The notes: generated from the letters alone by a model not told the origin. 64,000 nucleotides of DNA from an uncultured Ardenticatenaceae bacterium (GCA_964389925.1 CAYMGE010000002.1:47729-111728); one strand, 5' to 3'. Shown: positions 1 to 64,000, counted from the stretch's first letter. Translations and numbers: made by a program.

Positions 1-129
1 CGCTTGATTAGTACACTTACACTCAGTTGGCTTTTGTTAGGCGAACGACTACAGACCGTGTGGCAGGCGGTTGGGGCTGCCATTGTTTTAATAACCGTCT
101 CGATTTATTTGTGGCGACAACGTGGATAA
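1..129 (+). CDS. 3' end of a membrane transporter gene, probably EamA/DMT family (partial, runs off window start)
   Basis: Frame 1 is open from base 1 to TAA at 127-129. The translated tail ...LSWLLLGERLQTVWQAVGAAIVLITVSIYLWRQRG looks like the last TM helix of EamA-type permeases. Too short for the ORF track. Confidence 0.35.
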   Translation, partial: RLISTLTLSWLLLGERLQTVWQAVGAAIVLITVSIYLWRQRG

Positions 130-177
130 AATTAAGCCCCTTGCATTTACAGCCCTTGCCTTCTAGCATCCCCTTTA

Positions 178-1521
178 ATGCCACAAGCTAAACGCAACGT
201 CCACACGATTAACCGTGCTATTTTATTTGCCTATGCTCTTATTGCGCTCACGCTCGTTTATTGGAGTGTCGTGCGTGCCGATTGGCTGATGGTGCGCGAA
301 GACAACCCGCGTGTTATCGAAGCGGAGTTGCGAACGCGGCGCGGCACAATTTTCGATGTAAATGGGGATGTGTTAGTAGAATCGGTTGGGGAGGGGCGCG
401 TCGGCCGAGTTTACGTTGATGGAAGCGGCGCGGCCGTTGGCTATTACAGCCCGCGCTTTGGGACACTGGGGGTGGAGCGCGGATTGAATAGTCATTTGAG
501 CGGTGCGGATGAACCTTCGGCCGAAACATTCGCACGCAATCTGCGTCATGAACCACGCATCGGCCGCGACGTTCGCCTCACTATCAATGACAACTGGCAA
601 CAGCAGGCGGCCGAGTTGCTAAAAGGGCAGAAAGGCGGCATCGTTTTGCTTTCGCTTTCAGATATGTCGCTACGAGCGTTGGCGAGTGCGCCGACGTATG
701 ATCCCAATTTGCTCGATGAGCAGTTTGCTGAGTTGAGTGAGGACGCTGATGCGCCGTTGTTGAATCGGCCGATTCAAGGCCAATATCAGCCCGGTCTCGC
801 CCTAGAGCCGTTTATACTCGCCGATCTGGTCAATCGACGCGCTGTCGAACTCGACCGTGCCATTGCTGACCCAAACGAACCAATCCAGCTTGGTAGCACC
901 ACGTTACAATGTCAATCAGAGGTTGACGAAACTGCTGCGTGGTCGATCACACTAGCTGAAACCTGCCCTGCGCCGCTCATCAGCCTCAAAAATCAATTTA
1001 CGCTCACAACCCTTCAAGCACTATATACAAACTTTGGATTTTATCGTCAGCCCGAACTCGCCTTTGCTGTCGAAGGTGAAACACTGCCAATTCTGCTGCC
1101 CGACAACATCGAACGCGCCCTGCTCGGTCAAGACACTCTCACCATCACCCCTTTGCAGCTTGCCCTCGCGTGGGCCGCGTTGGCACGCTCAGGCGAACTG
1201 CTTCAGCCGCACATCGTAGCCGCTTTGGAAAATCAAGCGGGGGCGATGGTGATTCGTTCGCATGAGCAGGAGGCGAGCCAGACGGTTGAAGGCTGGGCGG
1301 CCGAGCGCATCCTAGAGATTTTGCCTAGGTCAACTATCGCTATCGAACACCGCGCACTGGCGATTGCCGACGAACAGGGCAACACGACCGCATGGTATTT
1401 GGGACTTTTCCCGACCACACAGCCGCGTTATGCGTTAGTTGTCGCTTTAGAGGAAAGCGACCTGCCAACAGTGGAAGCGATTGGTCGCCAATTTATTCGC
1501 TCTGTTTCGGGATCACGCTGA
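178..1521 (+). CDS. Penicillin-binding-protein (PBP2/FtsI-type) transpeptidase-like protein with degenerate active-site motifs
   Basis: 447-aa ORF with an N-terminal TM anchor (AILFAYALIALTLVYWSVV). PBP-type blocks present: RRGTIFDVNGDVL, ASAPTYDPNLL, NRPIQGQYQPG. The expected SxxK box reads LALE and the KTG box reads GNT (see findings). Confidence 0.7.
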   Translation: MPQAKRNVHTINRAILFAYALIALTLVYWSVVRADWLMVREDNPRVIEAELRTRRGTIFDVNGDVLVESVGEGRVGRVYVDGSGAAVGYYSPRFGTLGVERGLNSHLSGADEPSAETFARNLRHEPRIGRDVRLTINDNWQQQAAELLKGQKGGIVLLSLSDMSLRALASAPTYDPNLLDEQFAELSEDADAPLLNRPIQGQYQPGLALEPFILADLVNRRAVELDRAIADPNEPIQLGSTTLQCQSEVDETAAWSITLAETCPAPLISLKNQFTLTTLQALYTNFGFYRQPELAFAVEGETLPILLPDNIERALLGQDTLTITPLQLALAWAALARSGELLQPHIVAALENQAGAMVIRSHEQEASQTVEGWAAERILEILPRSTIAIEHRALAIADEQGNTTAWYLGLFPTTQPRYALVVALEESDLPTVEAIGRQFIRSVSGSR

Positions 1522-1533
1522 GAAGATTTTTTC

Positions 1534-2016
1534 CTACAATTTTTCGTGCAGCGTGCGCGTGATCTGCTCGATGTGGGTCACGTCGTGTAACCCCAACTGC
1601 ATGAGTGCATCTGTCATCGAAAAGCTCTCGCGCTCAGGGTGATTGCCGTGACGTTCCCACTGTTCATCTGTCAATGACTTAAACAAATCAATAAATGCAC
1701 GACGATGCTGCACGAAGTCTGCCAGTACCTCGTTCAAGTCCTGCTCGCTGTAGCGATTATCGATCACCATTTGGTCATGATCGGCCGGCACAAGATCAGG
1801 CAGCTCTTCACTCAACATGCGTTCAACGCGATGTTGAAAGATGTAGTCAAAGTCGCGCAGATGACACAACGCCTCCAACGCCGTCCACCCATCGCCGCTA
1901 TCGCGGTAGGTGGTCGCCGTCTCCTGCGTCACGTCGCCTAAAATGTTTTTCAAGATGTCAGGGGTTGTTTTTGCAAGCCAACCGTTGCGCTTGCGAAGTG
2001 TGTTCATGTCGATCAT
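1534..2016 (-). CDS. DinB-family (DinB/YfiT-like) putative metal-dependent protein
   Basis: 160-aa ORF of DinB size with the DinB His pattern (ALCHLRDFDYIFQHR ... LGLHDVTHIEQI). Confidence 0.75.
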   Translation of the reverse strand: MIDMNTLRKRNGWLAKTTPDILKNILGDVTQETATTYRDSGDGWTALEALCHLRDFDYIFQHRVERMLSEELPDLVPADHDQMVIDNRYSEQDLNEVLADFVQHRRAFIDLFKSLTDEQWERHGNHPERESFSMTDALMQLGLHDVTHIEQITRTLHEKL

Positions 2017-2962: not shown

Positions 2963-3099
2963 AAGAGGAGAAGGAGAAAATGATTCTTAATACCCAAAGG
3001 ATAAAGCATTTTTTCCATTTCCCTCATCCAAATTTTTACATTTTGCGCGTCAATGAAATAACACTTGTCGTGAATGAAACGAACATTAAAGCAAGATAA

Positions 3100-4665: not shown

Positions 4666-5013
4666 GTATACTCCGTTCGTTGATCACGATTACGAGGATA
4701 ATACATGGGAATATCACCTGCATGACCTCCCACTCACAGATGTATAACTTTCATACAACCCGCTCGATAGGAGTCCATGCAAATGCCTCCTCGTCACGCT
4801 GCACATGACCGAGACTGGGAAACAGCATGTGGTAGAAGAGGGTCAACAGGCTCTCATTGACAAATCGGCCGAACAAGCGAGTTTTTCATATCACAATTGT
4901 ATCTCACCTATCCCCACGCATGAATATCGCTTATACCCAGCGTTACCACTGGAAAACTGTGCAAGAGAAGGTCTCTATGTGCGCTCGATTGGGGTTCGTC
5001 ATAAAATCAGGCC

Positions 5014-5835: not shown

Positions 5836-5850
5836 TGACTATGTTAAACG

Positions 5851-5889
5851 TAAGGCGTATTGCGTGTTCTGTATATGCAATACGCCTTA
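5851..5889. terminator. Bidirectional hairpin terminator between convergent trpC and S8 peptidase genes
   Basis: Perfect 13-bp inverted repeat TAAGGCGTATTGC (5851-5863) / GCAATACGCCTTA (5877-5889) with a 13-nt loop, sitting between two convergent stop codons (5835 and 5908). Confidence 0.6.
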
Positions 5890-5907
5890 CGACCAAATCG
5901 ATCTCCG

Positions 5908-8766: not shown

Positions 8767-8800
8767 GAGAAAATCTCCTTGTTTAAGATAAACCCTTTAG

Positions 8801-10306: not shown

Positions 10307-12579
10307 TAGCGATCTGCCTCCCGAACAGCTGTGCCTAAGATAATGCGATAGTCACCACTTGTTCCGGAAGCACCTTCAATTTCGATTGTATATTCTCCGA
10401 CAAAGTCTACAACAAAGAAGATCGTTTCATTGTAATTTTCGGAAGCGTAATCGGCCGAGACAACCAAATTTCCCTCTGGATCATAGAGCGAGATGATGCC
10501 GTCGAGTCCGTTGTAACATTCTAGCGTGAGAACGTCTATTGACTCCTCAGCTGTCGTATAGGTATGAGAGGTCGTTTCGCCCGCCGTCACAAAGCCGGTC
10601 ACGCTGTCATCAACAGGCAGCACGAGTAGAAAATAGGGGGTTGGGTCGGTGTCTGCATCTCGGCCGAATTCAGAAATTGCGAGTAGATAATCGGCCGAAC
10701 TCTCTGGTGTAAAGACAACAGAATCGGCATCATTCCCAAAGCTGATCGTTTCTGCCAACGCATTTTCACCAGCCCCATACACCGCAATGTCTAGGTCTGC
10801 ATCTATCTGTGGAACGACCAAAATGAGCAGTTCTTCCCCTGCATTAGCCACAAGCGAGTACGTTTCTATCCCGATCTCATCTCTAATTACCCCATCCACT
10901 TGATCGCCAACAGATATGGTCTCCCCTACAGGGGATTCTGTGGGTGGGGGCGGTTCAGGCGTTGCTAGCGGTATGCCCAACACGATGCTGTCCCGAATCG
11001 CTAGGAAGGTTGGCTGCCAGCGTTCCCATGCGTCCCCTTTCTCTGACACAAGATTGACCATAATCATGGCATTGCCCGACGTGCGAACCGCCGTCAAGTC
11101 GATGATGATGTCTTCGGCATCAGCTAAGTAGGTTGTGGTCGCTGCGCTTTGTCCATTGATAGAAAATAGCTCTGTCTCATTGATAACTTCAAGCGAGTCG
11201 TACTCTTCCCGAAATGATTCAAGCATGAATTCGAGCAGCGCGTCTGGAGCCAACCCCGCCACGCTTGCATCGGCAAACAGTGTTCCGGCTGCACCATCCG
11301 TGAAATCATCCGAATCAAAGCTGGCCTGTGAGTCTGCGTACTCAAAGCCATCGGCCGTCTCTTCCCGCACCCAACTATCGGGCAGCTGAATTGAAATTCC
11401 CCGCGTGCTATGCTCGATTTCGCTAAACCCAGCATAAGGATCGGGGGTGGCAGTTGGTGAAGGTGTCAGCGTGGGCGTTGGAGAGAGCGTTGGGGTCGGG
11501 GTATTCGTTGGTGTGTTGGTGGGCGTGCTTGTCGGCGGCAGCGCTGTTGGCGTGGGTGTTGGGGCAAATGCGGGCAAAATGACCTGCGACCCAAGCCAGC
11601 CAATTAAAATGAGGAGCGCAAGGACACCGCCCCCAATAAAGAGTGGCAGACGTGATTTGTTCGTTCCCGCTGAAGGAGAGGATAACGATGATGTGTCGGG
11701 TGGTGTGTAGGTCGGCTGCCTAACGGTGGCGGCTTGGCTGACGGGAGGCGGTGGGGTAGGTTGGGGGGTGGAAACTGGCGGCGCGGTTGAGAAGAGGGCG
11801 CGGGCGAAGGCATCGGCCGATGGATAGCGATCAGTCGTCGTCAACGCCATCGCCGTGTAGACTGCGCGGTTGACCGCTGGCCCGCTCGTCTGGCTGCGTT
11901 CCGAGACGGCCGGCAAACGCACATTGCTAAACTGACGCGAAATGCTATCGGTCGGCTCTTCCCCAGTCAGCAAACAGTAAACGGTTGCCCCCAATGAGTA
12001 AACATCCGAATAAGGGCCTGTTCGCCCACCGTACTGTTCAGGTGGACTAAAGCCGGGTGAGACCGCTTTTGCCGCAACCTGTGTCTTGGCTTGCGCCGAG
12101 TTTAGTTTTGAGATGCCAAAATCGACCAGCATCGCCTGATTATTTTCAGTGATGATGATATTGGCTGGCTTGATGTCGCGGTGGATAATCGACTGGTTGT
12201 GTAGATAGGAGACCGCATCACAAACCTGCTCAATCCACGGCTTGATCTCTGCCAGCGTGAAAGGGCGTTCCTGCGCCCGCATCCGATCTTGCAGGTTTGT
12301 GCCATCCACAAAGTCCATCACGAGATATTGACCTTGCTCTGGAATGATAAAGTGATCTGTGACGCGAGGCAGGTTGGGATGGCGCAAGTTTGCCAGCGTG
12401 GAGGCTTCATGTTGAAACTGCTGGCGGGCTTCGGCCGAACTCTCCGTACTTTCCTTGAGCGCAACACGCGCCCGTAGCGATATATCCCACGCTCGATAGA
12501 CGTTGCCATAGCCACCGCCGCCGACAAACTCAACGATGCGGTAGCGATTGTAAATCACCTGACCTTTTTGAAGCTGCAT
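10306..12579 (-). CDS. Ser/Thr protein kinase, single-pass, with large extracytoplasmic domain
   Basis: 757 aa. GGGGYGNVY, ALKE, HRDIKPANII, DFG, SPGFSPPE. TM helix LPLFIGGGVLALLILIGWLG. Pro/Thr linker, then an outside domain of about 380 aa with unknown fold. Confidence 0.9.
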   Translation of the reverse strand: MQLQKGQVIYNRYRIVEFVGGGGYGNVYRAWDISLRARVALKESTESSAEARQQFQHEASTLANLRHPNLPRVTDHFIIPEQGQYLVMDFVDGTNLQDRMRAQERPFTLAEIKPWIEQVCDAVSYLHNQSIIHRDIKPANIIITENNQAMLVDFGISKLNSAQAKTQVAAKAVSPGFSPPEQYGGRTGPYSDVYSLGATVYCLLTGEEPTDSISRQFSNVRLPAVSERSQTSGPAVNRAVYTAMALTTTDRYPSADAFARALFSTAPPVSTPQPTPPPPVSQAATVRQPTYTPPDTSSLSSPSAGTNKSRLPLFIGGGVLALLILIGWLGSQVILPAFAPTPTPTALPPTSTPTNTPTNTPTPTLSPTPTLTPSPTATPDPYAGFSEIEHSTRGISIQLPDSWVREETADGFEYADSQASFDSDDFTDGAAGTLFADASVAGLAPDALLEFMLESFREEYDSLEVINETELFSINGQSAATTTYLADAEDIIIDLTAVRTSGNAMIMVNLVSEKGDAWERWQPTFLAIRDSIVLGIPLATPEPPPPTESPVGETISVGDQVDGVIRDEIGIETYSLVANAGEELLILVVPQIDADLDIAVYGAGENALAETISFGNDADSVVFTPESSADYLLAISEFGRDADTDPTPYFLLVLPVDDSVTGFVTAGETTSHTYTTAEESIDVLTLECYNGLDGIISLYDPEGNLVVSADYASENYNETIFFVVDFVGEYTIEIEGASGTSGDYRIILGTAVREADR

Positions 12580-12595
12580 GTCCGTTTCCTTTTAA

Positions 12596-17600: not shown

Positions 17601-17827
17601 TTGCAGATCAATCTTCTGCTGAACTGATTTTCCCACCGCAGGAAGAGATTGCCCAACTGCAGGCACTTTTGAGGCGAGGTGATGTCAAAGGGGCAAAACA
17701 ACTGATCGAGGGCTTTTCAGCCGATTTTCCAGCCTTCACATCCCACACCTTGTCACTGTTGTCGGCTTTCCGCTTACGAGAGCTACGCATGTGGCTTGCA
17801 GATCAACAGCTACCATACGGCAAGTAG
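14642..17827 (+). CDS. Hybrid sensor histidine kinase (multi-TM sensor, HAMP, HisKA, HATPase, receiver)
   Basis: The ORF-track start at 14561 is TTG; the first ATG is at 14642 (MLLFNANAL). H-box [18 protein letters not shown] boxes LLGNAIKFT and GTGLGLALV, receiver [11 protein letters not shown]...[10 protein letters not shown]. Confidence 0.9.
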
Positions 17828-17847
17828 ATTACATACTGCCAAATTAG

Positions 17848-17899: not shown

Positions 17900-17913
17900 A
17901 CCATTTTCAACTT

Positions 17914-20166
<2,253 letters not shown>

Positions 20167-49900: not shown

Positions 49901-50579
49901 GAAGACTCTGACACGCTAAATGCAGCGAGGCTAGCGACGATGAACACGCTGTCTCAATCGAAACACATGGTCCCGTCAGCCCAAACAAGTAGGCGATGCG
50001 CCCTGCTGCTGTGCTGGCTGAGTTGCCTGTGATCGTGTAAAACTCGCGGGTTTGCGAAACTAACTGCTTGAGATATTCGCTGACCCCAATGCCGAGAAAG
50101 ACCCCCGTCTCACTATTATAGAGATCGCTGGGTACAACATTCGCCGCTTCCATCGCCTCCCATGCCGTTTCCAGCAATAGTCGATGTGTCGGATCCATCA
50201 CCACAACCTCACGCGGTGATAGCCCAAAAAAAAGTGGGTCAAATGTGTCTACCTGCTCTAAAAATCCCCCATGTAACCGCACCGACTGGTCGGCACGGTC
50301 GCTAAAGGTCGGCATGTCCGTCTTACGCATTGCGGGTAGTTCGATGATCGCATCCACGCCAGCGAGCAGCATCTCCCAGAATTGGGCAGATGTCTCAACA
50401 CCGCTTGGAAAGCGACATCCCATCCCGACGATTGCAATCGGTTCATGATAGGCGGATAGTTGTTTTTTATACTTCCGGATAACTTTGGCTGATTTTTGCA
50501 GCGCGGCGGTTAGCTGTTGCTCTTTATTAGATGAAGGCATGGCGTTTGTCCCAACAATGTTCAACAAGGTCTGACTCAT
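43929..50579 (-). CDS. Type I PKS with C-terminal NRPS condensation domain (KS-AT-DH-KR-ACP-C)
   Basis: The ORF-track start at 50618 is TTG; in-frame ATGs at 50579 and 50540. KS (ACSSSL, EAHGTGT, NIGH), AT (GHSLG), DH ([11 protein letters not shown]), KR (TGGLRGLG), ACP (GMDSL), C (HHIAADAWS). Confidence 0.95.
48931..48960. repeat. Tandem heptanucleotide repeat (GGTGCGT) x4.3 inside the PKS coding sequence
   Basis: GGTGCGTGGTGCGTGGTGCGTGGTGCGTGG. Read on the minus strand it encodes [11 protein letters not shown] in the KS-AT linker. Confidence 0.9.
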
Positions 50580-50895
50580 TGAACAGCGAGAACGCCTTTT
50601 TTGTGCAGATTTTGACAAGATTAGCGCAACGGTATTGGTTTCGCAATGTTGCCTTAGATGGAAGAGTTGTACAATAACACGCTGAAGGAATGTTTGATCG
50701 TGCCGACGATAGATGATTATGCGATCAAATTTACCTTACGATAATGGCGATTAGCGCAACACACGTTTGAATTAACACGTTTTGAGCAAGTTGGTTTCGC
50801 ACTCTAAAGAAATTAATGAGATTTCTCACAACTGAAAATCGGCCGAATATACTACGGGTTACAAGTATGGGACTAAACACGAGAAGAGTGATTTT

Positions 50896-53800
50896 ATGCG
50901 ACAATTTCTGATTATCGGCCGAACAATGACATATTCCCCCGCCGTCGCAATTTCTGCAAGTCGGGCGGGTGGACTTGGGCTACTTGATTTGACAGAGGCA
51001 GATTTAGCAACGGCGCGAAAGGCGTTAGCAGAAGTCTCTCGCTATGCGAGGGATGAGATCTCTCGGCCTGAAGGTGATAACATTGGGGTTATTTTTTCGG
51101 CCGAAGTCACCCCCACCCTCCTCGCTGAATTACCTCATTGGATCACAACCGTCGTTTTTTCGGCACAAAACTATCGCAAAACGTGGCTCAAAAAAGCGCA
51201 ACGTATGGGTCTCAGCGCGTGGGTTGAGATATTTGATGGCTTAGAGGCGGAAAAAGCTGAAAAGTGGGGCGCAGATGGCCTCCTGTTACGCAATGCGTCG
51301 CGTCTAACTGCGCTTCGTGAACAGGTCAGCTTACCGATTTACGTACAGGGGGCAATCGGCCGCGAAACGGCGCGACAACTGTGGAATGACCATGCAGCCG
51401 GTATTGTCTTGCGCGAAGAACTGGCCTTAACTCGTGAGGCACAGTTACCCTTACATGTGCAGGCTGTAATTCGGGCGCGTCAATTTGACAAGCTCCCACG
51501 TCAGTTTGGGGCAGGTGTTAAGTTTGCGCCAGACTACGCAGAGGATTGTCGGACAGTCGGTGGCGTTCTGCGCGAATTGCGGCTCACAACCCCGCCTCCG
51601 CTCGTAATTCCAAAGCCGGCCGAGATTGCAATCATTGGCATTGAATGTGTCCTGCCCGGCGCAAAAAATAAACAGCAATTTTGGGAGAACATTCTCAATA
51701 GTGTTTATGCGATTCAGGAGGTGCCGGCCGATCGTTGGGACAGCGACTTATATTTTGACCCAGATCGTAAAGCAAAAGATAAATTGTATTCAAAGTGGGG
51801 CGGCTTTATTGATGACGTGCCATTTGACCCGCTTGAGTTTGGGATGCCACCCAACTCGCTAAAGGCGATTGACCCGATGCAACTGCTTGCGTTGAAGGTG
51901 GCAAAAGGGGCGTTACAGGATGCGGGGTACGCGGGGCGTGAAGTCAATCAGCGTAACACGGGCGTGATTTTGGGGTGTAGCGGTGGCTTGGGGGATGTTG
52001 GGCAATACTATTTGTTGCGAACGATGTTGCCGTCGGTGATTGGGCAGGGAGCGGCCGACTTTCAGCAAAATACCAACCTGCCAGAGTGGACAGAAGATTC
52101 ATTCGCTGGTTTATTGCCCAATGTGACAGCGGGGCGGATCGCCAATCGGCTCGATTTTGGCGCGGTCAACTATGTCGTCGATGCAGCATGTGGCTCGTCA
52201 TTGGCAGCCGTGCATCTGGCGACAAAAGAGCTAAACAGCCACAATGCCGATCTGATGGTCGTCGGCGGAGTTGATACGGTGCAGTCGCCATTTGGCTTTA
52301 TGTGCTTTAGCGCGACAGGTGCGCTCACGCCGACGGGACACCCGCGCCCATTTGACGCAGAGTCGGACGGAATCGCCATCAGCGAAGGCGTGGTGATGCT
52401 GGTGTTAAAGCGGCTGGCAGATGCAGAACATGATGGAGATCGAATCTATGCCGTTTTGCAAGGAGTCAGTGGCAGCAGCGATGGGCGTGCGCTAGGGATG
52501 ACGGCTCCACGTTTGGAGGGGCAGCAATTGGCCTTGCAGCGCGTCTACGAGCAGTCAGGCGTTGACCCAACGACAGTCGATCTGTTTGAGGCACATGGTA
52601 CGGGAACAGCGGTCGGGGATCGCACCGAAGCGAAGTCGCTCAATCAATTCTTGGAGTCACGCGGCGCAGAGACAAATCGACAAGCCATTGGCTCAGTTAA
52701 GTCGATGATTGGGCATACGAAGGCGGCCGCTGGCGTGGCAGGACTGGCGAAAATCGCGCTGGCACTGCATCATAAGACGTTGCCACCCACATTAGGCGTG
52801 GCAACACCCAATCCGAAGGCGGGGTTTGGGTCGGGGCCGCTGTATGTCAACAGTCAAACTCGGCCGTGGATCAAAACAAACGACATGCGACGGGCAGCAG
52901 TCAGCGCGTTTGGGTTTGGGGGAACAAACTTCCATGCGCTACTGGAGGCGTATCCAGATGATTTTGTGCGGGTTGGGGCGCGGAAGAATTGGTCGGCCGA
53001 ACTATTCTGGTTTGCGGCCGAGACCTCTGAACAGCTAACCGATCAACTAAGTTTAGTCCAACGACAACTAACCGACCAAGTGAATTTAGCAGACTTAGCT
53101 CATTCAGTTTGGGCAAATCGTTCGGGAGGCGTACAAGTTGCCTTTGTTGCAACAGATACCAGCGATCTTCAAAAACAGATTGAAAACGCTTTAAGATATT
53201 CCATTTTTTCAAAAAATGGAATATCTGGACAGGTGGCATTCTTGTTTTCAGGGCAAGGGTCGCAATATGTCAATATGGGGCGCGAGTTAGCGATTCATTT
53301 TGATGAGGTGCGGGAAGCATTTGAAGAAGCAGATAGCATTTTAGAAAGAGGATTGAGTGGATTCATTTTTCCACCCCCTGCATTTGACAAAGCGACTGAG
53401 AAAGCACAGCAAGCAGCGTTGACGGCAACAAATGTGGCGCAACCAGCGTTGGGGGCAGTCGAGTTGGGCATGTTGCGCTTGTTAAAGGCGTTGGGGGTTA
53501 CGCCTGATGTAACCGCTGGACACAGCTATGGGGAGTACGCCGCCCTGCACGCAGCGGGCGTGTTTGATGCGCGGACGTTGTTGACGCTATCGGCCGAAAG
53601 AGGCCGCTGCATGGTCGAAGCTGGCGGGGATGAGATGGGGACAATGGCGGCGGTTTCGGCCGATGCAGATACCGTGCAAGCTCACATCAAACCACTCAAG
53701 GATGTTTGGATTGCCAACATCAATTCTCCACAACAGACAATTATTGCGGGGACAGACGTTGGCGTTGCAGATGCAGTCAAAACGCTACAAGCGGCGGGGT

Positions 53801-55995
53801 TGACCGTCAAGAAGATGAACGTCGCGGCGGCATTCCATTCGCCAATTGTGGCAAAGGCGCGGGATGCGTTTGCAGAGATATTAAAAGAGGTTGATTTTCA
53901 GAAACCTCATATTGGCGTGTACGGGAATGGGGCGGCAGAGCTTCACAAATCACGAAAACTAGCCAAGTCGATGGCTGACCACATGGCGCAACCCGTGCGC
54001 TTCGTCGAGCAAATCGAAACAATGTATGCGGACGGCGTGCGGACATTCGTCGAAGTAGGCCCGCGCAAAATTTTAACCAACTTGACCCGCTCTATTTTGG
54101 ACGGCCGAGATTTCTGCGCCGTTGCGCTGGATGGTGACAAATCAGACGGGCTACGCGGACTGCTATTGGCACTGACGACATTGATCGAGTGCGGCGTTGA
54201 TGTTGACATTGAACGACTGTTTGCTGGGCGCGACTTGAAGCTGTTGGATTTGGAGGATATTGCACCAAAGCAAGAGGTCTCGCGGACAACTTGGTTTGTG
54301 AATGGGGGTGGTGTGCGGCGACAGGATGAGGCGCACACGATGATTACCCCATTAACGCCTAAGAAAAGCACGCCCGACCCAGCAACTAAAGCCCGTCAGA
54401 GCGAGACAGCACGACCAAGTGCGAAGCAAAAACTGCAACCGCAGCAACGCGCTGTCCCAACACCACAACACCCCCGTCCAATTAACCCATCCATCATGCA
54501 CCAATACAGCCAGTTGATGCAGACATTTTTGCACAACCAGCGCGATATTATGGTCGCGGCACTAGGCGGTGAGTCTCAAACAACGAGACCAGTTGTGCCA
54601 ATCAAAACATCCGCCCCCGATTCGCCGAAACGACAGGTGATGCAGTTGGTTGATGCACCGCTTGCAAACGGGGCGCAACAGTTGGTCGTGGATTACCCCG
54701 TATTGGTGGCGGGGAATTTAGCGGCGACCGTGGCGGCCGTCATTCAAGGCGTGGGTGGTCGCGTTGGAACACAAGGAGAGCTGCACGGCGCGATCTACGC
54801 GAGTCAAGAATTTGACGCAGAAGCGGCCTTTGCCATCGCAAAGCGCGTGCAGTTTGCGCGGTCTGTCCCCCCATTTTTCCTACTCGTGACGGTTGGGGAC
54901 GTGCGTGGCGGACATGCAGCGCGTGGGTTTGCGCTGACGCTGGCGCAGGAGTGGACGGACATTACGGTGCGGCATCTTCATTTTGAGCGCGTTGGGCAAA
55001 TGAGCCAATTGTTGGGGGCAGAGATTTGGGCGCATGAGTCGGCCGTTTGGCACACAAATGGCGTGCGAAAAACGTGGCAGATTGTCGAAAATAAAATCAA
55101 AAACGCACCGCAATTTGCGCTGGAGAGCCAAGATGTGATCGTCGTGACAGGCGGGGCGCGGGGAATCACAGCGGCGGTTATGGAGCGACTGGGGAAGTAT
55201 CGACCGAACATTGTGATTATCGGCCGATCCCCCCTCCCCACACAACCCGAATCCTCAACAACTGCTAAACTGACCGATCCAATGATGATCAAAAAGCAGC
55301 TCATCGCAGCGCGAAAAGCGACGGGCAAACCGATCATTCTCGCAGAAGTTGAACAAGAATTTAAGACCTTGCTGAAACAACGGGAGTTGCGCGAGTCGTT
55401 GGCAACGCTAGCAGGGACAGGTGCGACCGTGCGCTATCATGCGGCCGATGTGCGCGACAAACAGTCAGTCGCTGCGGTCGTTGAGGCGACGCAGCGTGAG
55501 TTTGGCAAGGTGACGGGCGTGATTCATGCGGCGGGCGTGATTGAAGATAAACGGGTGGCGGCGAAATCGACCGAGTCGTTCACTCGCGTCTACCAAACAA
55601 AAGTTGAAGGGGCAAACGTGCTTCTTTCGCTTTTGCCTCACGCTGATCTCAAATTTGCCGCTTTCTTTTCATCCGCCGCCAGCGCGTTTGGCAACATCGG
55701 TCAAGTTGATTACGCGGCTGGCAATGGGTATTTGAACGGGCTTGCGGTTGAACTGAGTCAAAAAATACGCGCCGTAGCGGTCTGTTGGGGCGCATGGCGC
55801 GGTGGGATGGTGTCGGCCGAACTCGAACGCCAATTTGAACAGCGCGGCATCCCCTTAATCGAAATCGCCGATGGCTGCCAAGCCTTTGAACACGAACTTT
55901 TCTGCGGTAATGAGCCAATCGTCGTCTATGCAGATGGCGATTGGGCAACACAAACAATCAATACGGGCGACCATGCCCTAGCAACTAGCAACTAG
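50896..55995 (+). CDS. PUFA/heterocyst-glycolipid-synthase-like PKS subunit (NMO/ER-like N-domain, KS, AT, KR; no ACP)
   Basis: 1699 aa. SASRAGGLGLLD (nitronate-monooxygenase-like, about 230 aa), KS (DAACGSSL, EAHGTGT, GHTKAAAG), AT (GHSYGEY, AAFHS), KR (VTGGARGIT ... GQVDYAAGN). Confidence 0.92.
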   Translation: MRQFLIIGRTMTYSPAVAISASRAGGLGLLDLTEADLATARKALAEVSRYARDEISRPEGDNIGVIFSAEVTPTLLAELPHWITTVVFSAQNYRKTWLKKAQRMGLSAWVEIFDGLEAEKAEKWGADGLLLRNASRLTALREQVSLPIYVQGAIGRETARQLWNDHAAGIVLREELALTREAQLPLHVQAVIRARQFDKLPRQFGAGVKFAPDYAEDCRTVGGVLRELRLTTPPPLVIPKPAEIAIIGIECVLPGAKNKQQFWENILNSVYAIQEVPADRWDSDLYFDPDRKAKDKLYSKWGGFIDDVPFDPLEFGMPPNSLKAIDPMQLLALKVAKGALQDAGYAGREVNQRNTGVILGCSGGLGDVGQYYLLRTMLPSVIGQGAADFQQNTNLPEWTEDSFAGLLPNVTAGRIANRLDFGAVNYVVDAACGSSLAAVHLATKELNSHNADLMVVGGVDTVQSPFGFMCFSATGALTPTGHPRPFDAESDGIAISEGVVMLVLKRLADAEHDGDRIYAVLQGVSGSSDGRALGMTAPRLEGQQLALQRVYEQSGVDPTTVDLFEAHGTGTAVGDRTEAKSLNQFLESRGAETNRQAIGSVKSMIGHTKAAAGVAGLAKIALALHHKTLPPTLGVATPNPKAGFGSGPLYVNSQTRPWIKTNDMRRAAVSAFGFGGTNFHALLEAYPDDFVRVGARKNWSAELFWFAAETSEQLTDQLSLVQRQLTDQVNLADLAHSVWANRSGGVQVAFVATDTSDLQKQIENALRYSIFSKNGISGQVAFLFSGQGSQYVNMGRELAIHFDEVREAFEEADSILERGLSGFIFPPPAFDKATEKAQQAALTATNVAQPALGAVELGMLRLLKALGVTPDVTAGHSYGEYAALHAAGVFDARTLLTLSAERGRCMVEAGGDEMGTMAAVSADADTVQAHIKPLKDVWIANINSPQQTIIAGTDVGVADAVKTLQAAGLTVKKMNVAAAFHSPIVAKARDAFAEILKEVDFQKPHIGVYGNGAAELHKSRKLAKSMADHMAQPVRFVEQIETMYADGVRTFVEVGPRKILTNLTRSILDGRDFCAVALDGDKSDGLRGLLLALTTLIECGVDVDIERLFAGRDLKLLDLEDIAPKQEVSRTTWFVNGGGVRRQDEAHTMITPLTPKKSTPDPATKARQSETARPSAKQKLQPQQRAVPTPQHPRPINPSIMHQYSQLMQTFLHNQRDIMVAALGGESQTTRPVVPIKTSAPDSPKRQVMQLVDAPLANGAQQLVVDYPVLVAGNLAATVAAVIQGVGGRVGTQGELHGAIYASQEFDAEAAFAIAKRVQFARSVPPFFLLVTVGDVRGGHAARGFALTLAQEWTDITVRHLHFERVGQMSQLLGAEIWAHESAVWHTNGVRKTWQIVENKIKNAPQFALESQDVIVVTGGARGITAAVMERLGKYRPNIVIIGRSPLPTQPESSTTAKLTDPMMIKKQLIAARKATGKPIILAEVEQEFKTLLKQRELRESLATLAGTGATVRYHAADVRDKQSVAAVVEATQREFGKVTGVIHAAGVIEDKRVAAKSTESFTRVYQTKVEGANVLLSLLPHADLKFAAFFSSAASAFGNIGQVDYAAGNGYLNGLAVELSQKIRAVAVCWGAWRGGMVSAELERQFEQRGIPLIEIADGCQAFEHELFCGNEPIVVYADGDWATQTINTGDHALATSN

Positions 55996-56000
55996 CAACT

Positions 56001-59000
56001 ATGCAAAACGAACCTATCGCTATCATCGGCATGGCAGGGCTATTTCCAAATGCCCCCGATGTCCATACTTATTGGCACAACATTTTGAACAACGTGCCGG
56101 GCATTAGTGATCCCGCCAATGCCAATTGGGATACAAACATTCGCGGTGGCTATTTGGGCGATCTGGCACGCTTTAATCCAAAAAAGTTTGGCATAAAAGC
56201 ACGCGCCCTTGACGGCACAGAACCGGCTCAATGGCTAGCCCTCTCCATGGCAAAAGCGGCTCTCGATGATGCTGATTTTGACAGCTTCAAAACAGAGGCC
56301 ATTCGCGCCCGAACTGCCGTCATTTTGGGCAATGGTGCGTACATCAATCGCGGCAACACAACCCATTATCAAGCGGGAACCCTTGTGGATGAGACGGTTG
56401 AATTGATCGGCCGACTCAATCTAGGGCTAGAAGCCGAACAACTCAACGGCCTGCGTGATGAATTACAGAGCCATTTACCACCGCTCAACGCCCGTGTGGC
56501 ACGAGGATTGATCCCAAACATCATTGCGGGGCGTGTCGCCAATCGGCTCGACTTGATGGGCGGTGCGTACACTGTTGATGCGGCATGTGCATCGGCAATT
56601 TTCGCAATTGAGCAAGCGGTACGTGGCTTGCAGCGGGGGGAAATTGACTGCGCTATCGTCGGCGGTGCATATATCGCCAGCCCAAGCCCCATGACGAAAC
56701 TATTTGGGAAGCTGGGCATTGTCTCAGCAAATGGTCAAATTGAGCCATTTGGGGCGGGTGAAGGTGGCACGCTGCTTGGTGAAGGGATTGCGATGCTGGT
56801 GTTGCGTCGCCTCTCTGATACAGCCCCAAAGTCAGTTTATGCCGTGATTCGTGGGATTGGCACAGGTAGCGACGGTGGAGACATCAACGTACTTGCCCCT
56901 AAATTTCAGGGTGCAGTGCGGGTCATGCAAAAGGCTCTCGCTGATGCGGAGGTCGAAAAAGCGTCCATCGACCTGATTGAGTCACATGGGCTTGGCACAA
57001 AAGTGGGCGACCATACCGAATTTGCGGCGTTGGCAACCGTCTATGGTGGCAAAAAGTCGCGCATCATTGGGACAGTCAAGCCGATGACAGGACACACGAT
57101 GCCAGCGTCGGGGGCAAACGCGATTATCAAAGCAGCGTTGGCGATTCAAACGGGAACGTTGCCACCGACGATCAACGCGAGCAATCCCGATCCTAAGCTG
57201 GACTGGGAGAAGGCAAATATGCGTTTTTTGCAGAAATCGGCCGAATGGTCATCCCAAACACGTCGCGCCGCTGTCAACTCTTATGGCTTTGGCGGTGTGG
57301 CTGCACACGTCATTCTCGAAAACGCGCCGGCCGAAAAACAGCGCGAGACGTTGCCACAACCCATTCCACTCGACGAAAACGCGATTGTGTTGGAGACAAA
57401 TCGGCGCACGTTAGTTGTGTCAGATGAGTTCGTAGAGAAGTTGCAAGCGGCAAGTGAGTTCGTGGGTAGCGATGATGGGGGCAAAGTGGAAAGTGTCAGA
57501 ACGAATAAGAATAAAGAATCTAGGGAGGACAAGGTTGCAAGTTACAACTTGCAACTTGCAACTTCTCCAAAAGAGGGTGATATGAATTCTGTAATGAGTG
57601 ATTACTTTAATTTGATGGAGACATTTTTGCATGTGCAGCGCGACGTGATGCTGGCGGCGATGGGTGGGGAGATGCCCCCAATGATGGCACAACCACAACA
57701 GACTGTCTACGAGATACCACAGCAGCCAGCCCAACCACCTGCCCCACAACCTATTTATGAGCCATACACACCTCCGACCACTAATACAAATGGGCAGACA
57801 GCCGTCAAAGAGACCGTTGTGGAGGTTGCACCAACGGTGACATCACAATCGTCGGATAGTGGCGCGGATGCGATGCGTGACGCGCTGGTTGAGATTGTGG
57901 CGGTGCAGACGGGGTATCCGGCCGACATGATTGGGACTGATTTGGATTTAGAGGCAGAGTTGGGGATCGATTCGATTAAGCGGGTCGAGATTTTGACAGC
58001 GTTTCAGGAGCAGTTTGGGGATGCGGTACGCTCCGACCAGATGGATGATTTGTCAGAGTTGAAGACATTGGATGAGATTGTGGGGTTTGTCGGGGGGGAT
58101 AGCGCAAATTTTAAGCGAGGGGGAGCGGATGCCCCCGTCCTTGACTTTCCGTACATCCGCAACGTCGTGGCTCGTTCAGCAAATCACCTTGAAGTGACCA
58201 ATGTGACCGACGTACAGACTGAGATTTTGCTGCGAGACCACGCTTTTGGGCGGGGAGTATCGGCCGATCCAACAATAGTCGGCCTCCCCGTCCTTCCTAT
58301 GACTGGTGCCATCGAGATGATGGCTGAGGCAGCGCAACTGCTAGAGCCATCGCGTCAGTTGGTGGGCTTACGCGATGTGCGCTCGTTGCGCTGGATAACG
58401 GCTCCGAGCGGCGTTTTGCAAACGCGCACGGTTGCCGAGCGAACGGAGGAAGGGGTGAAAGTTCGCCTGTTTGTGGTGGGAGATCGGTTGCACGCGGCGG
58501 AGATGACTGTGCTTTTTGCGGCCGACTATCCGCTTCTCACATCTCAATCGACGGTTTGTGAGCAGACTGAAATCCGCTCCATCTGGGAGAACATTTATGC
58601 AGAGAGTGGGCTATTTCACGGGGAGGGGTTACAGAACATTCAGGAGATTAGTACCTATTCAGACGAGCATATTTGCGCCACCTTGCAAGTGAAGCCAAAC
58701 GAATGCTGGCTGCTTGACCCAATTTTGTTGGATGGGTTGGCACAACTATCGGGGTGTTGGGGGACGTTAACACAAGATGCGTTGGTGCTGCCCATGGCGA
58801 TTGAGGCGGTTGATTTTGCCGCTCCACTCAATTTGAGCGCAGGCAGCATCGTGCGCTGTGAGTCGCAGATGTCGATGGAAGATGGGCTTGCGGTCACAAA
58901 TTTACACCTATTCACTGGTGACAGGTTGCTGCTCACCACCACAGCGTGGCGCGGACAACTATTCGCACTACCGCAGCAGCTCACAGACTTTCTCCTCAAG

Positions 59001-59393
59001 CGATCTACAAACTGGTTGGGTAAATGGAAAAATGAGCAAATAAAAATAAACCGCAACGATTTTCCGTTACCTGTGTTCTCTAAAGCAGGTGGGGTTTGGA
59101 CGGACGCGCTGGCATTTGCCATCTTGCACCCAAAAGAGCGCGAAACATTTCAAACCATCACATTACCACCAGCACATAGATTAAAAATAATTTTACAGAT
59201 GATTGCCGCAAAAGAGTGGCTGCGGCGCAATGGGGTCGATGGTCTTTCGGCCGATATTCCCCTGTCTAAAACAGAGACCGGATTTTATTTCCGAGATTTT
59301 TACGTGGATGTTGTGGTTTCGGCCGAGAACATCATCGCGCAGAAAGCGGAAACGACATTTGAAAGAGAGAGAATGGATCATGATGAAAATTAG
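56001..59393 (+). CDS. PKS subunit KS-ACP-DH with C-terminal AcpS/PPTase-like segment
   Basis: 1130 aa. KS with Cys/His/His (DAACASA, ESHGLGT, GHTMPASG), ACP (LGIDSIKRVEIL), DH (LLRDHAFGRG...LPVLPMTG), C-terminal GVWTDA...IAAKEWLRRNG. Confidence 0.92.
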   Translation: MQNEPIAIIGMAGLFPNAPDVHTYWHNILNNVPGISDPANANWDTNIRGGYLGDLARFNPKKFGIKARALDGTEPAQWLALSMAKAALDDADFDSFKTEAIRARTAVILGNGAYINRGNTTHYQAGTLVDETVELIGRLNLGLEAEQLNGLRDELQSHLPPLNARVARGLIPNIIAGRVANRLDLMGGAYTVDAACASAIFAIEQAVRGLQRGEIDCAIVGGAYIASPSPMTKLFGKLGIVSANGQIEPFGAGEGGTLLGEGIAMLVLRRLSDTAPKSVYAVIRGIGTGSDGGDINVLAPKFQGAVRVMQKALADAEVEKASIDLIESHGLGTKVGDHTEFAALATVYGGKKSRIIGTVKPMTGHTMPASGANAIIKAALAIQTGTLPPTINASNPDPKLDWEKANMRFLQKSAEWSSQTRRAAVNSYGFGGVAAHVILENAPAEKQRETLPQPIPLDENAIVLETNRRTLVVSDEFVEKLQAASEFVGSDDGGKVESVRTNKNKESREDKVASYNLQLATSPKEGDMNSVMSDYFNLMETFLHVQRDVMLAAMGGEMPPMMAQPQQTVYEIPQQPAQPPAPQPIYEPYTPPTTNTNGQTAVKETVVEVAPTVTSQSSDSGADAMRDALVEIVAVQTGYPADMIGTDLDLEAELGIDSIKRVEILTAFQEQFGDAVRSDQMDDLSELKTLDEIVGFVGGDSANFKRGGADAPVLDFPYIRNVVARSANHLEVTNVTDVQTEILLRDHAFGRGVSADPTIVGLPVLPMTGAIEMMAEAAQLLEPSRQLVGLRDVRSLRWITAPSGVLQTRTVAERTEEGVKVRLFVVGDRLHAAEMTVLFAADYPLLTSQSTVCEQTEIRSIWENIYAESGLFHGEGLQNIQEISTYSDEHICATLQVKPNECWLLDPILLDGLAQLSGCWGTLTQDALVLPMAIEAVDFAAPLNLSAGSIVRCESQMSMEDGLAVTNLHLFTGDRLLLTTTAWRGQLFALPQQLTDFLLKRSTNWLGKWKNEQIKINRNDFPLPVFSKAGGVWTDALAFAILHPKERETFQTITLPPAHRLKIILQMIAAKEWLRRNGVDGLSADIPLSKTETGFYFRDFYVDVVVSAENIIAQKAETTFERERMDHDEN

Positions 59394-62426: not shown

Positions 62427-62445
62427 AACGATAAACCACACAACT

Positions 62446-62898
62446 ATGTTTACGTCAACTGTGCAACCCGACTGGATCGACCACAATGGTCACATGAATG
62501 TCGCCTACTACGTGCTGGCATTTGACTTGGCAACGGATGAGATGTATGAATGTTGGGGGCTGGGGCTTGATTATCCTGAGCGTGGCTATTCCGTCTATAC
62601 ATTGGGCATGAACGTCGATTATCGGGCAGAGATGTTGGCGGGAGAGCCGTTTCGTGTCGAGTCTGCTCTGATTGATTTTGATCACAAGCGCGTCCACTAT
62701 TTTCACACGATGTATCGCGGTGAGACGCAGGAAGTTGTGGCAACAAACGAATGTTTGGCGATGAACGTCAATTTAGCAACGCGGCGCTCGGCCGATTTTC
62801 CCCCAGACATCCAAGCAAAACTTGCCTCCATCAAATCAGATAACGTGCCAAGGAGCTTCGGCCGAAAATTACAAATCAGGAGAAAAGATGTCGCTTAA
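62446..62898 (+). CDS. Hotdog-fold (4HBT/YbgC-like) acyl-CoA thioesterase
   Basis: Start set at the ATG at 62446 (MFTSTVQPDWIDHNGHMNVAYY). Size of about 150 aa and the N-terminal D-x-N-x-H-(V/M)-N block are typical of 4HBT thioesterases. Confidence 0.75.
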   Translation: MFTSTVQPDWIDHNGHMNVAYYVLAFDLATDEMYECWGLGLDYPERGYSVYTLGMNVDYRAEMLAGEPFRVESALIDFDHKRVHYFHTMYRGETQEVVATNECLAMNVNLATRRSADFPPDIQAKLASIKSDNVPRSFGRKLQIRRKDVA

Positions 62899-63787
62899 TG
62901 TCGAGATACGCGAACCAAGTTTTAGAGACGTTGTGGAAATTGAACACGATCTCGAACAGCTCGCTACGGGCTTTGATTTCACCGAAGGCCCCATCTGGCA
63001 TCCAGCTTATCAAAGCGTGCTGTTCAGTGACATTATGGGCAACTCGCTGTTTAGCTGGTCGGCCGATGCTGGCATCGTCAAACGCAATCGTCACAGCTAC
63101 ATGGCGAATGGCAATGCCTACGATTTGCAGGGTCGCCTCATTACTTGCGAACATGCCACTAGCCGTTTGACGCGCACCGACCTCACAACAGGAACGTATG
63201 AGGTTCTCGCCTCTCACTTCGAGGGTAAACAGTTAAACAGCCCAAACGATGTCGTTGTGAAGTCAGATAGCACGATCTATTTCACTGATCCAACTAGCGG
63301 CCGAAGTGCCGGATTTGGCGTGCCACGTGAGCCTGAGCTGTCCTTTCGCGGCGTTTATCGGCTCAACCCGGAAAATGGTGCGCTAATGTTGCTGGTCGAT
63401 GATTTTTCAAAGCCAAATGGACTGTGTTTCTCACGTGATGAAAACCAGCTATTTGTCAATGATACGGACAGACTGCACATTCGCGTATTTGATGTTTTGG
63501 AAGACGGCACATTAGCAAATGGTCGCGTTTGGGCTGAGACGATTGGGACAGGCAAAGGTGTTCCCGACGGCATGAAGATCGACACGCAGGACAATATCTA
63601 CTGCTGTGGGCCGGGCGGCATTTACGTGTTCGATGCAAACGCCGTTTGTCTAGGCGTAATTCTCATGCCTGAGCAGACAGCCAACTTTGTGTTTGGGAAC
63701 GCTGATTTTCGCAGTCTATACGTTACGGCCTCAACCTCACTCTATCGTCTGCGCGTCCGTATTGCGGGACATCCGACATTTTTGTAA
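62888..63787 (+). CDS. SMP-30 / gluconolactonase / LRE-like beta-propeller protein
   Basis: Start set at the ATG at 62888 (AGGAGAAAAG upstream). EGPIWHP, NSPNDVVV, PNGLCFS, PDGMKID blocks. Confidence 0.85.
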   Translation: MSLNVEIREPSFRDVVEIEHDLEQLATGFDFTEGPIWHPAYQSVLFSDIMGNSLFSWSADAGIVKRNRHSYMANGNAYDLQGRLITCEHATSRLTRTDLTTGTYEVLASHFEGKQLNSPNDVVVKSDSTIYFTDPTSGRSAGFGVPREPELSFRGVYRLNPENGALMLLVDDFSKPNGLCFSRDENQLFVNDTDRLHIRVFDVLEDGTLANGRVWAETIGTGKGVPDGMKIDTQDNIYCCGPGGIYVFDANAVCLGVILMPEQTANFVFGNADFRSLYVTASTSLYRLRVRIAGHPTFL

Positions 63788-64000
63788 TTCGGACTATGCA
63801 GAAATTGTGAAGACTGCATTTAGCAATCGTTTAACTCAGCTTGTGGTGTATCTCATTGACAAAAGCTAAAACAAGGGGAGAATATATGCTGTGTTCAAAA
63901 GAGCATATTTTTTGTAATCGTCTTGCATACCTATGCAAGCATAAAATGAGACATATTTATGAAACATCCGCACATATCAAACGAAGAGATGTTGAGTCGC

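Follow-up and report, generated by a model that had tools for sequence, protein, structure and literature searches.

A highly iterated palindrome with a CGGCCG core and lineage-specific flanks in the Anaerolineae

For 30 years highly iterated palindrome 1 (HIP1) has remained an unsolved puzzle, and work on it has dealt almost exclusively with cyanobacteria. HIP1 (GCGATCGC) and the alternate HIPs of cyanobacteria, TCGATCGA, GGGATCCC, CAGGCCTG and GGCGCC, form the closest described system (PMC4390886, PMC5861425) to the element reported here, the octamer TCGGCCGA. We analysed a 64-kb stretch of DNA (GCA_964389925.1, CAYMGE010000002.1:47729-111728; hereafter the window) from an uncultured member of the Anaerolineae (Chloroflexota), in which an exact search finds 78 copies of TCGGCCGA, or 1.22 per kb. 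The HIP class sensu Elhai 2015 and Xu 2018 comprises short, GC-rich palindromes that top the octamer list of a genome, with at least 0.3 copies per kb and more than about 15-fold excess over a low-order Markov expectation, and in HIP1 the deviations by a single base concentrate at the first and last base (Elhai 2015, PMC4390886).

We conclude that TCGGCCGA is almost certainly a real, DNA-level element of the HIP type. It is the top octamer of the window, exceeds expectation 60-, 52- and 27-fold at Markov orders 1, 2 and 3, is dispersed through coding and non-coding DNA, originates by substitution, deviates mainly at its outer positions, and is conserved beyond controls. It is thus a local HIP form in the Anaerolineae that displays every phenomenological property of HIPs, and it is not HIP1, since it contains neither CGATCG nor GATC and the host is not a cyanobacterium. 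A first-pass annotation of this DNA had drawn the analogy with HIPs, and both the outer-position variants and the strong conservation of sites between species agree with it.

Abundance and shape of the word in the window

Dinucleotide-preserving shuffles of the window, whose G+C content is 52.1%, contained 1.51 ± 1.16 copies of TCGGCCGA with a maximum of 6, and the count of about 75 made by eye in the first-pass annotation is close to the 78 observed. The core CGGCCG is the top hexamer, with 161 copies, 83 of which carry other flanks. Under maximal-order Markov models observed copies divided by expected ones (O/E) gave 60, 52, 27, 3.6, 1.2 and 0.99 at orders 1, 2, 3, 4, 5 and 6. The annotation had proposed that a ratio near 1 under a higher-order model would speak against the word; such ratios are formally reached at orders 5 and 6 only, where they are no refutation, since the 6- and 7-mers from which the expectation is then computed derive almost wholly from the motif. 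At order 6 the expectation is 119 × 106 / 161 = 78.3 against 78 observed copies, which restates the independence of the left T and the right A on the 161 cores.

The outer bases are where the word varies. Single deviations from TCGGCCGA at positions 1 or 8 number 69 (GCGGCCGA 36, ACGGCCGA 17 and CCGGCCGA 16), compared with 10 in total at the inner positions 2–7, so that the one-off variants noticed by eye are indeed present and fall mostly at the ends. A logo of the 78 sites holds information at ±1 only, with no more than 0.38 bit outside the 8-mer; the bases at −1 and +1 are A or T at 79% and 82% of the sites, as expected from the A/T-biased flanks described earlier. The outer T and A are statistically independent in the window (odds ratio 0.95), an incomplete flank pair being found on 83 of the 161 cores. 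Palindromic extension beyond the octamer is absent from 52 of the 78 sites and its frequency is no higher than chance. The two longer forms that had been pointed out do exist: a 22-bp perfect palindrome, ATTGATTTCGGCCGAAATCAAT, at 32819–32840, which is intergenic and the sole long extension among the six non-coding copies, and ATTTCGGCCGAAAT at 45304.

The copies are spread over the whole window, with counts per successive 4 kb of 6, 6, 6, 3, 4, 5, 4, 4, 4, 4, 5, 6, 6, 5, 5 and 5. In the first 14 kb there are 20 sites, which start at 401, 517, 765, 2547, 3257, 3932, 4292, 4865, 5713, 6734, 6845, 7481, 8537, 10267, 10451, 10660, 10691, 11813, 12431 and 13359. The 19 coordinates previously listed for this part are exact in 16 cases; 7491, 10670 and 13369 are corrected to 7481, 10660 and 13359, and 2547 had been overlooked. 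Between 15 and 31 kb the sites start at 15059, 16118, 16472, 16925, 18320, 20491, 21554, 22057, 22966, 23172, 25590, 26127, 27414, 27942, 28120 and 28955; between 31 and 47 kb at 31232, 31844, 32001, 32252, 32826, 33287, 36293, 37250, 37892, 38471, 40142, 41524, 42022, 42483, 42552, 44551, 45304, 46258, 46516 and 46967; and between 47 and 64 kb at 47053, 48979, 49267, 49801, 50839, 50915, 51097, 52993, 53590, 53656, 55220, 55813, 56407, 57237, 58260, 59247, 59319, 60234, 60718, 62788, 62858 and 63059. The closest pair (10660..10698, 31 bp apart) lies within a Ser/Thr kinase gene. The region 8801-14194 (minus strand) holds three consecutive Ser/Thr protein kinase genes, two with N-terminal zinc-ribbon domains, which adjoin a subtilase and a hybrid histidine kinase.

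A high copy number, with one copy inside a 22-bp palindrome, might also be produced if TCGGCCGA were the core of a miniature mobile element or of a repetitive extragenic palindrome (REP) type repeat, or an assembly or linker artefact. The absence of information beyond ±1 indicates that it is not the core of a miniature inverted-repeat transposable element (MITE), a REP element or an RNA gene, and scans of the window for Rfam families and tRNAs gave no match. Moreover, 92% of the copies are intragenic and in frame, there are no indels relative to orthologues, and iteration of CGGCCG words recurs in independent assemblies (NCBI, ENA and Logan). The flank logo, the intragenic location and the ungapped orthologues exclude this reading, to which we give a negligible probability.

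Viral contigs were also scanned for close pairs of TCGGCCGA. The 120 matches are mostly chance occurrences in high-GC phages, and the one dense locus, an IMG/VR contig (L163:1-1240), holds eleven copies at multiples of 33 bp in a tandem coding repeat of 67% GC. Such a repeat is a trap for screens based on motif density and not a dispersed HIP.

Imprint on genes and proteins

Our gene model comprises 34 open reading frames (ORFs) that cover 92% of the window, about 19,700 codons. The density of TCGGCCGA is the same inside and outside them, 72 coding copies at 1.22 per kb and six non-coding copies (4865..4872, and those starting at 20491, 22966, 32826, 50839 and 62788) at 1.23 per kb. Shuffling synonymous codons within genes left 4.8 ± 2.1 copies (maximum 11) in place of the 72 observed in coding sequence, a 15-fold excess, and shuffling codon order left 1.3. 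The word had been said to occur on both strands, in all reading frames and between genes, which holds, although the frames are far from evenly used: 56 of the 72 coding sites (78%) read TCG-GCC-GAn, eight xTC-GGC-CGA and eight xxT-CGG-CCG-Axx.

The dominant frame encodes Ser-Ala-Asp/Glu (S-A-[D/E]), and this tripeptide occurs 64 times in the window against 13.2 expected from amino-acid composition, about five-fold over-representation. Control tripeptides show no such excess, A-S-[D/E] being found 5 times against 13 expected and T-A-[D/E] 14 times against 15. The codon pair TCG-GCC, one of 24 possible, spells 56 of the 64 S-A-[D/E] (88%), where codon usage predicts 6%; neither TCG nor GCC is a preferred codon (23% and 26% usage). 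The third residue is encoded by GAA or GAT in 86% of cases after TCG-GCC and in 52% elsewhere, and hence the preference for A or T (W) at +1 is a choice at synonymous sites. In the two minor frames the compatible peptides, [FLIV]-G-R and R-P-x, are not in excess, and about 43% of them are spelled with TCGGCCGA.

These observations bear on a simpler explanation, in which the proteins favour Ser-Ala-Asp/Glu, or preferred TCG and GCC codons spell the word by chance. The single frame that holds 78% of coding copies and the five-fold excess of the tripeptide are what it would predict. It does not account for a non-coding density equal to the coding one, for the 16 coding copies in the other two frames with their word-spelled peptides, for the concentration on one codon pair of non-preferred codons, or for the depletion of the reversed peptide A-S-[D/E]; and sister lineages are instead enriched in T-A-V spelled ACG-GCC-GTn. 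The codon shuffles, the tripeptide spelling and the T-A-V of sister lineages exclude a peptide or codon-bias origin, which we regard as very improbable, and they bear out the earlier statement that neither one peptide nor codon bias explains the word.

Equal density in coding and non-coding DNA, the 15-fold excess over synonymous shuffles and the synonymous W preference together show that TCGGCCGA is imposed at the DNA level and has driven about 50 extra S-A-[D/E] into some 19,700 codons. The tripeptide excess is created by the word and not merely tolerated. A DNA-level process therefore forces synonymous codon choice and even amino-acid replacements.

Dialects in relatives and persistence of sites

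The nearest relatives of the window are metagenome-assembled genomes (MAGs) of Anaerolineae, Ca. Promineifilaceae and Ardenticatenaceae. The closest one available is "Anaerolineae bacterium 5_bin.52" (GCA_030425205.1), with 86–89% protein and 77–82% DNA identity in syntenic genes; in addition, a 2.3-kb Logan contig (SRR15635857) is 100% identical to window positions 17800–20147 and carries KatG. The CGGCCG core is iterated across these relatives with flanks that differ between lineages, which we term dialects. The TCGGCCGA dialect is found in 5_bin.52 (83 of 108 cores in 62 kb), in the ENA contig L026 (27 of 29 cores) and in a Ca. Promineifilaceae MAG, where it is iterated (L022, 11 of 18 cores in 14 kb). 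A second word, ACGGCCGT, takes its place in L027 (a 3.49-Mb contig), L028 (Ardenticatenaceae), L029, L030 and L031 (Ca. Promineifilaceae), with 160 copies in 106 kb. Finally, the bare hexamer without a preferred flank reaches 3.8–6 per kb in the loci L008–L012 (Chloroflexota MAG-54/171/182 and Anaerolineae R2_Bin_126_1). In R2_Bin_126_1, CGGCCG accounts for 191 of 234 GGCC tetramers.

Every dialect has a proteome imprint of its own. In 5_bin.52 there are 48 S-A-[D/E] where 11.8 are expected, and in L026 24 where 5.3 are, whereas the ACGGCCGT genomes hold 80 T-A-V against 11.2 expected, 74 of the 80 being spelled ACG-GCC-GTn. The independence of the two flanks is not a general rule, as the full octamer is favoured over half-flanked sites outside the window, with odds ratios of 19 in 5_bin.52 and 7.7 in ACGGCCGT genomes. 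Half-flanked cores are numerous in the window (36 copies of GCGGCCGA), unlike in the sister MAG. The evolutionary unit is the 6-bp core CGGCCG with lineage-specific flanks (T..A, A..T or none), and not the octamer alone.

Iteration of the word was not seen in Hydrogenedentota, Bacteroidota or other loci with homologues of the same gene. An 882-aa protein without a Pfam domain (23024-25672, minus strand) has homologues in Hydrogenedentota and Bacteroidota MAGs and, in relatives, homologues that are paralogues in tandem, of which L022 has three and L008, L009, L010 and L012 have two each. It shares 54% identity with its 5_bin.52 orthologue between flanking genes at 87–89%, and appears to be a fast-evolving family.

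We compared sites between the window and 5_bin.52 in codon alignments of eight orthologous genes (12.6 kb, 61–82% nucleotide identity). A site is present at the homologous position in 5_bin.52 for 11 of 13 window sites (85%), and reciprocally for 11 of 16. Only 13.7% of other octamers and 20% of GC-matched in-frame octamers are conserved (P = 2e-8 and 1e-6), and the high conservation of sites is seen even where a gene is down to 61% nucleotide identity. In the block syntenic with 5_bin.52 locus L001 (21714..29100, minus strand, about 81% nucleotide identity), six of eight in-gene copies are at homologous positions. The gene of an ABC-F ATPase (36268..38316, minus strand) carries in-frame copies at 36293, 37250 and 37892, each read as Ser-Ala-Glu; all three are conserved in 5_bin.52 and two of three in the L026 orthologue at 61% amino-acid identity, while the ACGGCCGT-dialect orthologue in L027 shares none of them and has its own sites elsewhere. 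We conclude that sites are maintained over long evolutionary distances.

Except for one site in L001, which faces a gap in the window, unshared sites align without gaps to near-sites such as ACGGCCGA (Thr for Ser), ATGGCCGA and TCGGTCGC, which indicates that substitution both creates and removes sites. HIP-poor islands of low GC occur inside HIP-dense DNA, and so the mark accrues with residence time. A hybrid polyketide synthase/non-ribosomal peptide synthetase (PKS/NRPS) gene cluster (43929..59393, 15.5 kb) bears 22 copies of TCGGCCGA, as dense a marking as in housekeeping genes, which points to a long-resident cluster and not a recent acquisition. The cluster region (41088-60984) comprises a thioester reductase (41088-42281), acyl-CoA carboxyltransferases (42284-43963 and about 59395-60984), a 2229-aa KS-AT-DH-KR-ACP-C protein (43929-50618, minus strand), a 1699-aa KS-AT-KR protein (50896-55995, plus strand) and a 1130-aa KS-ACP protein (56001-59393, plus strand).

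Candidate mechanisms and comparison with known systems

By analogy with HIP1 and with Dcm/Vsr, we tentatively place methylation-linked, biased T:G repair first among the mechanisms; it is unproven, and we hold it to be somewhat short of probable. The core CGGCCG would be the target of a resident cytosine DNA methyltransferase (MTase), and a partner T:G-mismatch repair enzyme of Mig or Vsr type would correct T:G to C:G in cognate and near-cognate contexts. Such correction would protect existing sites from decay by deamination and slowly convert near-sites into sites, acting as a ratchet of the HIP or very-short-patch (VSP) repair type. The outer bases would reflect the extended specificity of the enzyme pair, and differences in it between lineages would give rise to the dialects. 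Recombination, uptake or strand marking may be secondary functions of the evenly spaced methylated sites, as has been proposed for HIP1.

The neighbours of the core in the window, though not in 5_bin.52, fit this mechanism. CGGCCG has an O/E of 5.0 and TGGCCG/CGGCCA is the most depleted of its nine one-substitution neighbours (9 copies against 52 under the synonymous-shuffle null, O/E 0.17), where the other transition neighbours have an O/E of 1.2. A C→T deamination at the outer cytosine yields TGGCCG/CGGCCA, whose depletion matches the footprint of VSP-type repair. GGCC outside CGGCCG is scarce in the window, with 94 copies (O/E 0.32); of the other palindromes, TGGCCA is found a single time, and neither AGGCCT nor GGGCCC is present.

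A candidate enzyme pair is encoded in relatives of the ACGGCCGT dialect. In L031 (150-2296), a 223-aa HhH-GPD glycosylase is followed, 3 bp downstream, by a 490-aa 5-methylcytosine (m5C) MTase. The best solved relative of the glycosylase is 1KEA, the T:G-mismatch thymine glycosylase Mig.MthI (E = 1e-42; MutY is next at 8e-22), and that of the MTase is M.HaeIII, which reads GGCC. MTase homologues of at least 70% identity are found in L040 (9324-11455), L042 (1654-10246) and L043 (9327-11428), all in ACGGCCGT-dense host DNA, and the glycosylase is directly upstream in two of the three, L042 having the MTase only; hence four ACGGCCGT-dialect genomes hold the m5C MTase and three of them the glycosylase immediately upstream. 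The same pair, with a MTase homologue at 68%, stands beside an HNH nuclease in L041 (921-3021), and the two domains are fused in the single chains P0198, P0200 and P0220. PADLOC assigns the genes around the pair to the Mza defence system (MzaB–E: HATPase_c_3, Z1, DUF4420 and AIPR) and groups the glycosylase with REBASE nicking and repair endonucleases. A metagenome scan with the MTase returned only eight homologues, which share about 52% identity with it and lie in non-HIP DNA depleted of GGCC (O/E 0.06–0.14 in five of the eight loci). This suggests that the MTase family reads GGCC-containing sites as part of restriction systems, but sheds no light on the dialects.

The genes beside the L041 pair form a phage-like region (3000-13021, with portal and tube genes) next to HNH_2, the Mig-type glycosylase and the MTase. 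This region is unusually rich in GGCC (155 copies in 13 kb, O/E 2.1; GGCCGGCC 8 copies and GCCGGC 29), the opposite of restriction avoidance. In L030 (8789-18393, ACGGCCGT dialect), a DUF4007, BrxC-PglY-like and PAPS-reductase gene set adjoins the ABC-F gene; it looks like a DNA-modification defence island of phosphorothioation or BREX type, and coincides with over-dispersed HIP spacing.

Several observations weigh against biased T:G repair. No DNA MTase, Vsr or Mig was found among the window ORFs with Pfam, and no MTase or Mig in any TCGGCCGA-dialect locus compared, with local hidden Markov models. The candidate MTase, whose specificity for CGGCCG is putative, lies in a low-GC (34–40%) and nearly word-free Mza island that has the look of horizontally mobile DNA and not of an old driver. 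In 5_bin.52 the deamination product is not in deficit: TGGCCG/CGGCCA is found 25 times in 45 kb, and no inner one-off variant is commoner than TTGGCCGA; as the VSP signature is not reproduced there, we do not rest the mechanism on it. Correction of T:G to C:G alone leaves the T..A and A..T outer bases unexplained. Lastly, a purely mutational ratchet predicts Poisson or clustered spacing, and the observed sites are under-dispersed.

The ratio of variance to mean of TCGGCCGA counts in the window is 0.72, 0.45, 0.19 and 0.23 at 1, 2, 4 and 8 kb (P = 0.04, 0.0035, 0.0003 and 0.02), compared with at least 0.7 and a mean of 1.2 for hexamers of similar abundance. Pooled TCGGCCGA-dialect loci outside the window gave 0.58, 0.48 (2 kb) and 0.42 (P = 0.0005, 0.0014 and 0.017). 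The ACGGCCGT loci with HIP-poor islands are over-dispersed and the pool of all dialects is therefore not significant, which makes the grouping by TCGGCCGA alone post hoc. Even spacing of TCGGCCGA sites is thus probable, and it suggests that a selective component exists.

Such spacing would follow if the words were selected binding or marking sites for a chromosomal function, with selection acting on site density per unit length. Candidate functions are strand discrimination in mismatch repair (Elhai's model), nucleoid or condensin-type loading, and a methylated mark of 'self' for a defence system, for instance Mza, to read. The under-dispersion (variance/mean 0.19 for the window at 4 kb, 0.48 for independent TCGGCCGA loci at 2 kb), the positional conservation of 11 of 13 sites, and the preference for full 8-mers in relatives (odds ratios 19 and 7.7), as expected for a dimeric reader, speak for selected sites, and selection and a structural role were argued for HIP1 by Xu 2018 (PMC5861425). 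Set against this, the window flanks are independent and half of the cores lack a full flank pair, for which per-strand mutation pressure is a better fit than selection for complete sites; a gene-level test found no deficit of site-free genes (7 against 7.45 expected); and the reader protein is purely hypothetical. On balance we find selected sites unlikely.

A further alternative is that the word is a DNA uptake or recombination signal that spreads by molecular drive, in the manner of the uptake signal sequences (USS) of Haemophilus and the DNA uptake sequences (DUS) of Neisseriaceae. Word-bearing fragments would be preferentially taken up, recombined and spread, and the lineage flanks would bias exchange towards kin. 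A density of about 1.2–1.5 copies per kb that is the same in coding as in non-coding DNA, an imprint on the proteome, dialects that differ by lineage around a conserved core, HIP-poor islands of recent acquisition, and spacing more even than chance and replicated outside the window all agree with it. Density, imprint, dialects, islands and spacing are reportedly properties of USS and DUS, as Karlin in 1996, Findlay and Redfield in 2009 and Frye in 2013 are said to have described. With methylated HIP1, natural transformation of Synechococcus PCC 7002 rises more than 100-fold (bioRxiv 10.1101/2024.09.10.611283), and HIP1 abundance correlates with uptake-related genes (bioRxiv 10.64898/2026.06.24.733823); the transformation boost and the dialect structure make uptake drive more plausible. 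However, the uptake sequences known so far are not palindromes and measure 9–12 bp or more, whereas TCGGCCGA is an 8-bp perfect palindrome, no competence genes were found among the window ORFs with Pfam, the word is not enriched as inverted pairs in terminators, and the specific depletion of TGGCCG/CGGCCA would be left unexplained. We rank uptake drive second among the mechanisms and find it somewhat unlikely.

Methylation-linked repair, uptake drive and selected sites are not mutually exclusive. More speculatively, the CGGCCG words might be a maintained, methylation-read 'self code' of a large Anaerolineae clade that licenses recombination or uptake between kin, with a regulated site density, hence the even spacing, and with dialects as barriers to gene flow. 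We consider this decidedly unlikely, but if true it would be a palindromic, methylation-dependent counterpart of DUS dialects. HIPs would then be a general bacterial solution with independent origins in Cyanobacteria and Chloroflexota, and a switch of dialect would rewrite thousands of codons genome-wide, from S-A-D/E to T-A-V.

An independent HIP system in another phylum is a natural comparative experiment, offering a different core, three dialects, a protein imprint (S-A-D/E or T-A-V) and a candidate module of methylase and T:G glycosylase. A gene set that co-varies with dialect across the Anaerolineae would be the machinery, and what is learned from it should apply to HIP1 as well. The words skew the statistics of codons, peptides and k-mers, and so affect binning, detection of horizontal transfer and motif discovery; they distinguish native from recently acquired DNA, and they predict methylation sites relevant to transforming filamentous bacteria of wastewater and hot springs. 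The full-text literature searched, in which subscription journals are poorly covered, gave cyanobacterial HIP work only, with no description of TCGGCCGA, ACGGCCGT or any Chloroflexota HIP. The first-pass annotation likewise knew of no description of the word, and a CGGCCG-core HIP family with lineage-specific flanks has apparently not been described before.

We compared the family with other known systems. The Dcm/Vsr footprint in E. coli, described, it is said, by Bhagwat and McClelland and by Merkl in 1992, reportedly consists of an excess of CCWGG and a deficit of CTWGG/CCWAG. It supplies the logic proposed for the present case, an m5C methylase and T:G-specific repair that bias substitution towards the methylated word, which the O/E of 0.17 for TGGCCG/CGGCCA in the window would fit. 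The effect, however, is about 50-fold here, compared with less than 2-fold for CCWGG; Vsr was not found, relatives have an HhH-GPD glycosylase as the candidate partner, and the depletion is absent from the sister MAG. Mig.MthI, according to work attributed to Horst and Fritz in 1996, is reportedly the repair partner of the GGCC methylase M.MthTI on the Methanothermobacter plasmid pFV1. The 1KEA-like glycosylase directly upstream of an M.HaeIII-like m5C MTase in ACGGCCGT relatives, and the fusions of the two, recall this arrangement; the pair differs in lying in relatives and not in the window, inside a Mza defence island, and its reading of GGCC is putative. To our knowledge, GGCC words are not reported to be hyper-iterated in Methanothermobacter.

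USS and DUS share with the family a density of about one per kb on both strands and in genes, a proteome imprint, dialects on a conserved core, scarcity in recent islands and even spacing. They are asymmetric 9–12-mers, longer than TCGGCCGA, are often paired in terminators, and have a known receptor and competence machinery; TCGGCCGA is a perfect palindrome, and one of its six intergenic copies lies in a longer palindrome. REP elements, bacterial interspersed mosaic elements (BIMEs) and MITEs are likewise abundant palindromic repeats, but they span 20–40 bp or more, lie outside genes, have conserved stems and are mobilised by REP-associated tyrosine transposases (RAYTs), whereas only 8–10 bp are specified here, with no more than 0.38 bit outside the 8-mer, and 92% of copies are intragenic.

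The cyanobacterial HIPs are the closest match. In common with them, TCGGCCGA is an 8-bp, GC-rich, perfect palindrome in the range of about 0.4–2.7 per kb and tens of times over expectation; it occurs in all coding frames and in non-coding DNA, is born by substitution, and has its one-off variants at the outer bases around a 6-bp core. Its sites are conserved beyond background, and words replace each other between lineages. The cyanobacterial TCGATCGA even shares the T-CG..CG-A frame with TCGGCCGA. Unlike HIP1, the family belongs to Chloroflexota, is built on CGGCCG (an EagI-type site that contains GGCC) in place of CGATCG, has no GATC or Dam-type component, and carries T..A, A..T and no-flank dialects on one core, which in some relatives is iterated as the bare hexamer at 4–6 per kb.

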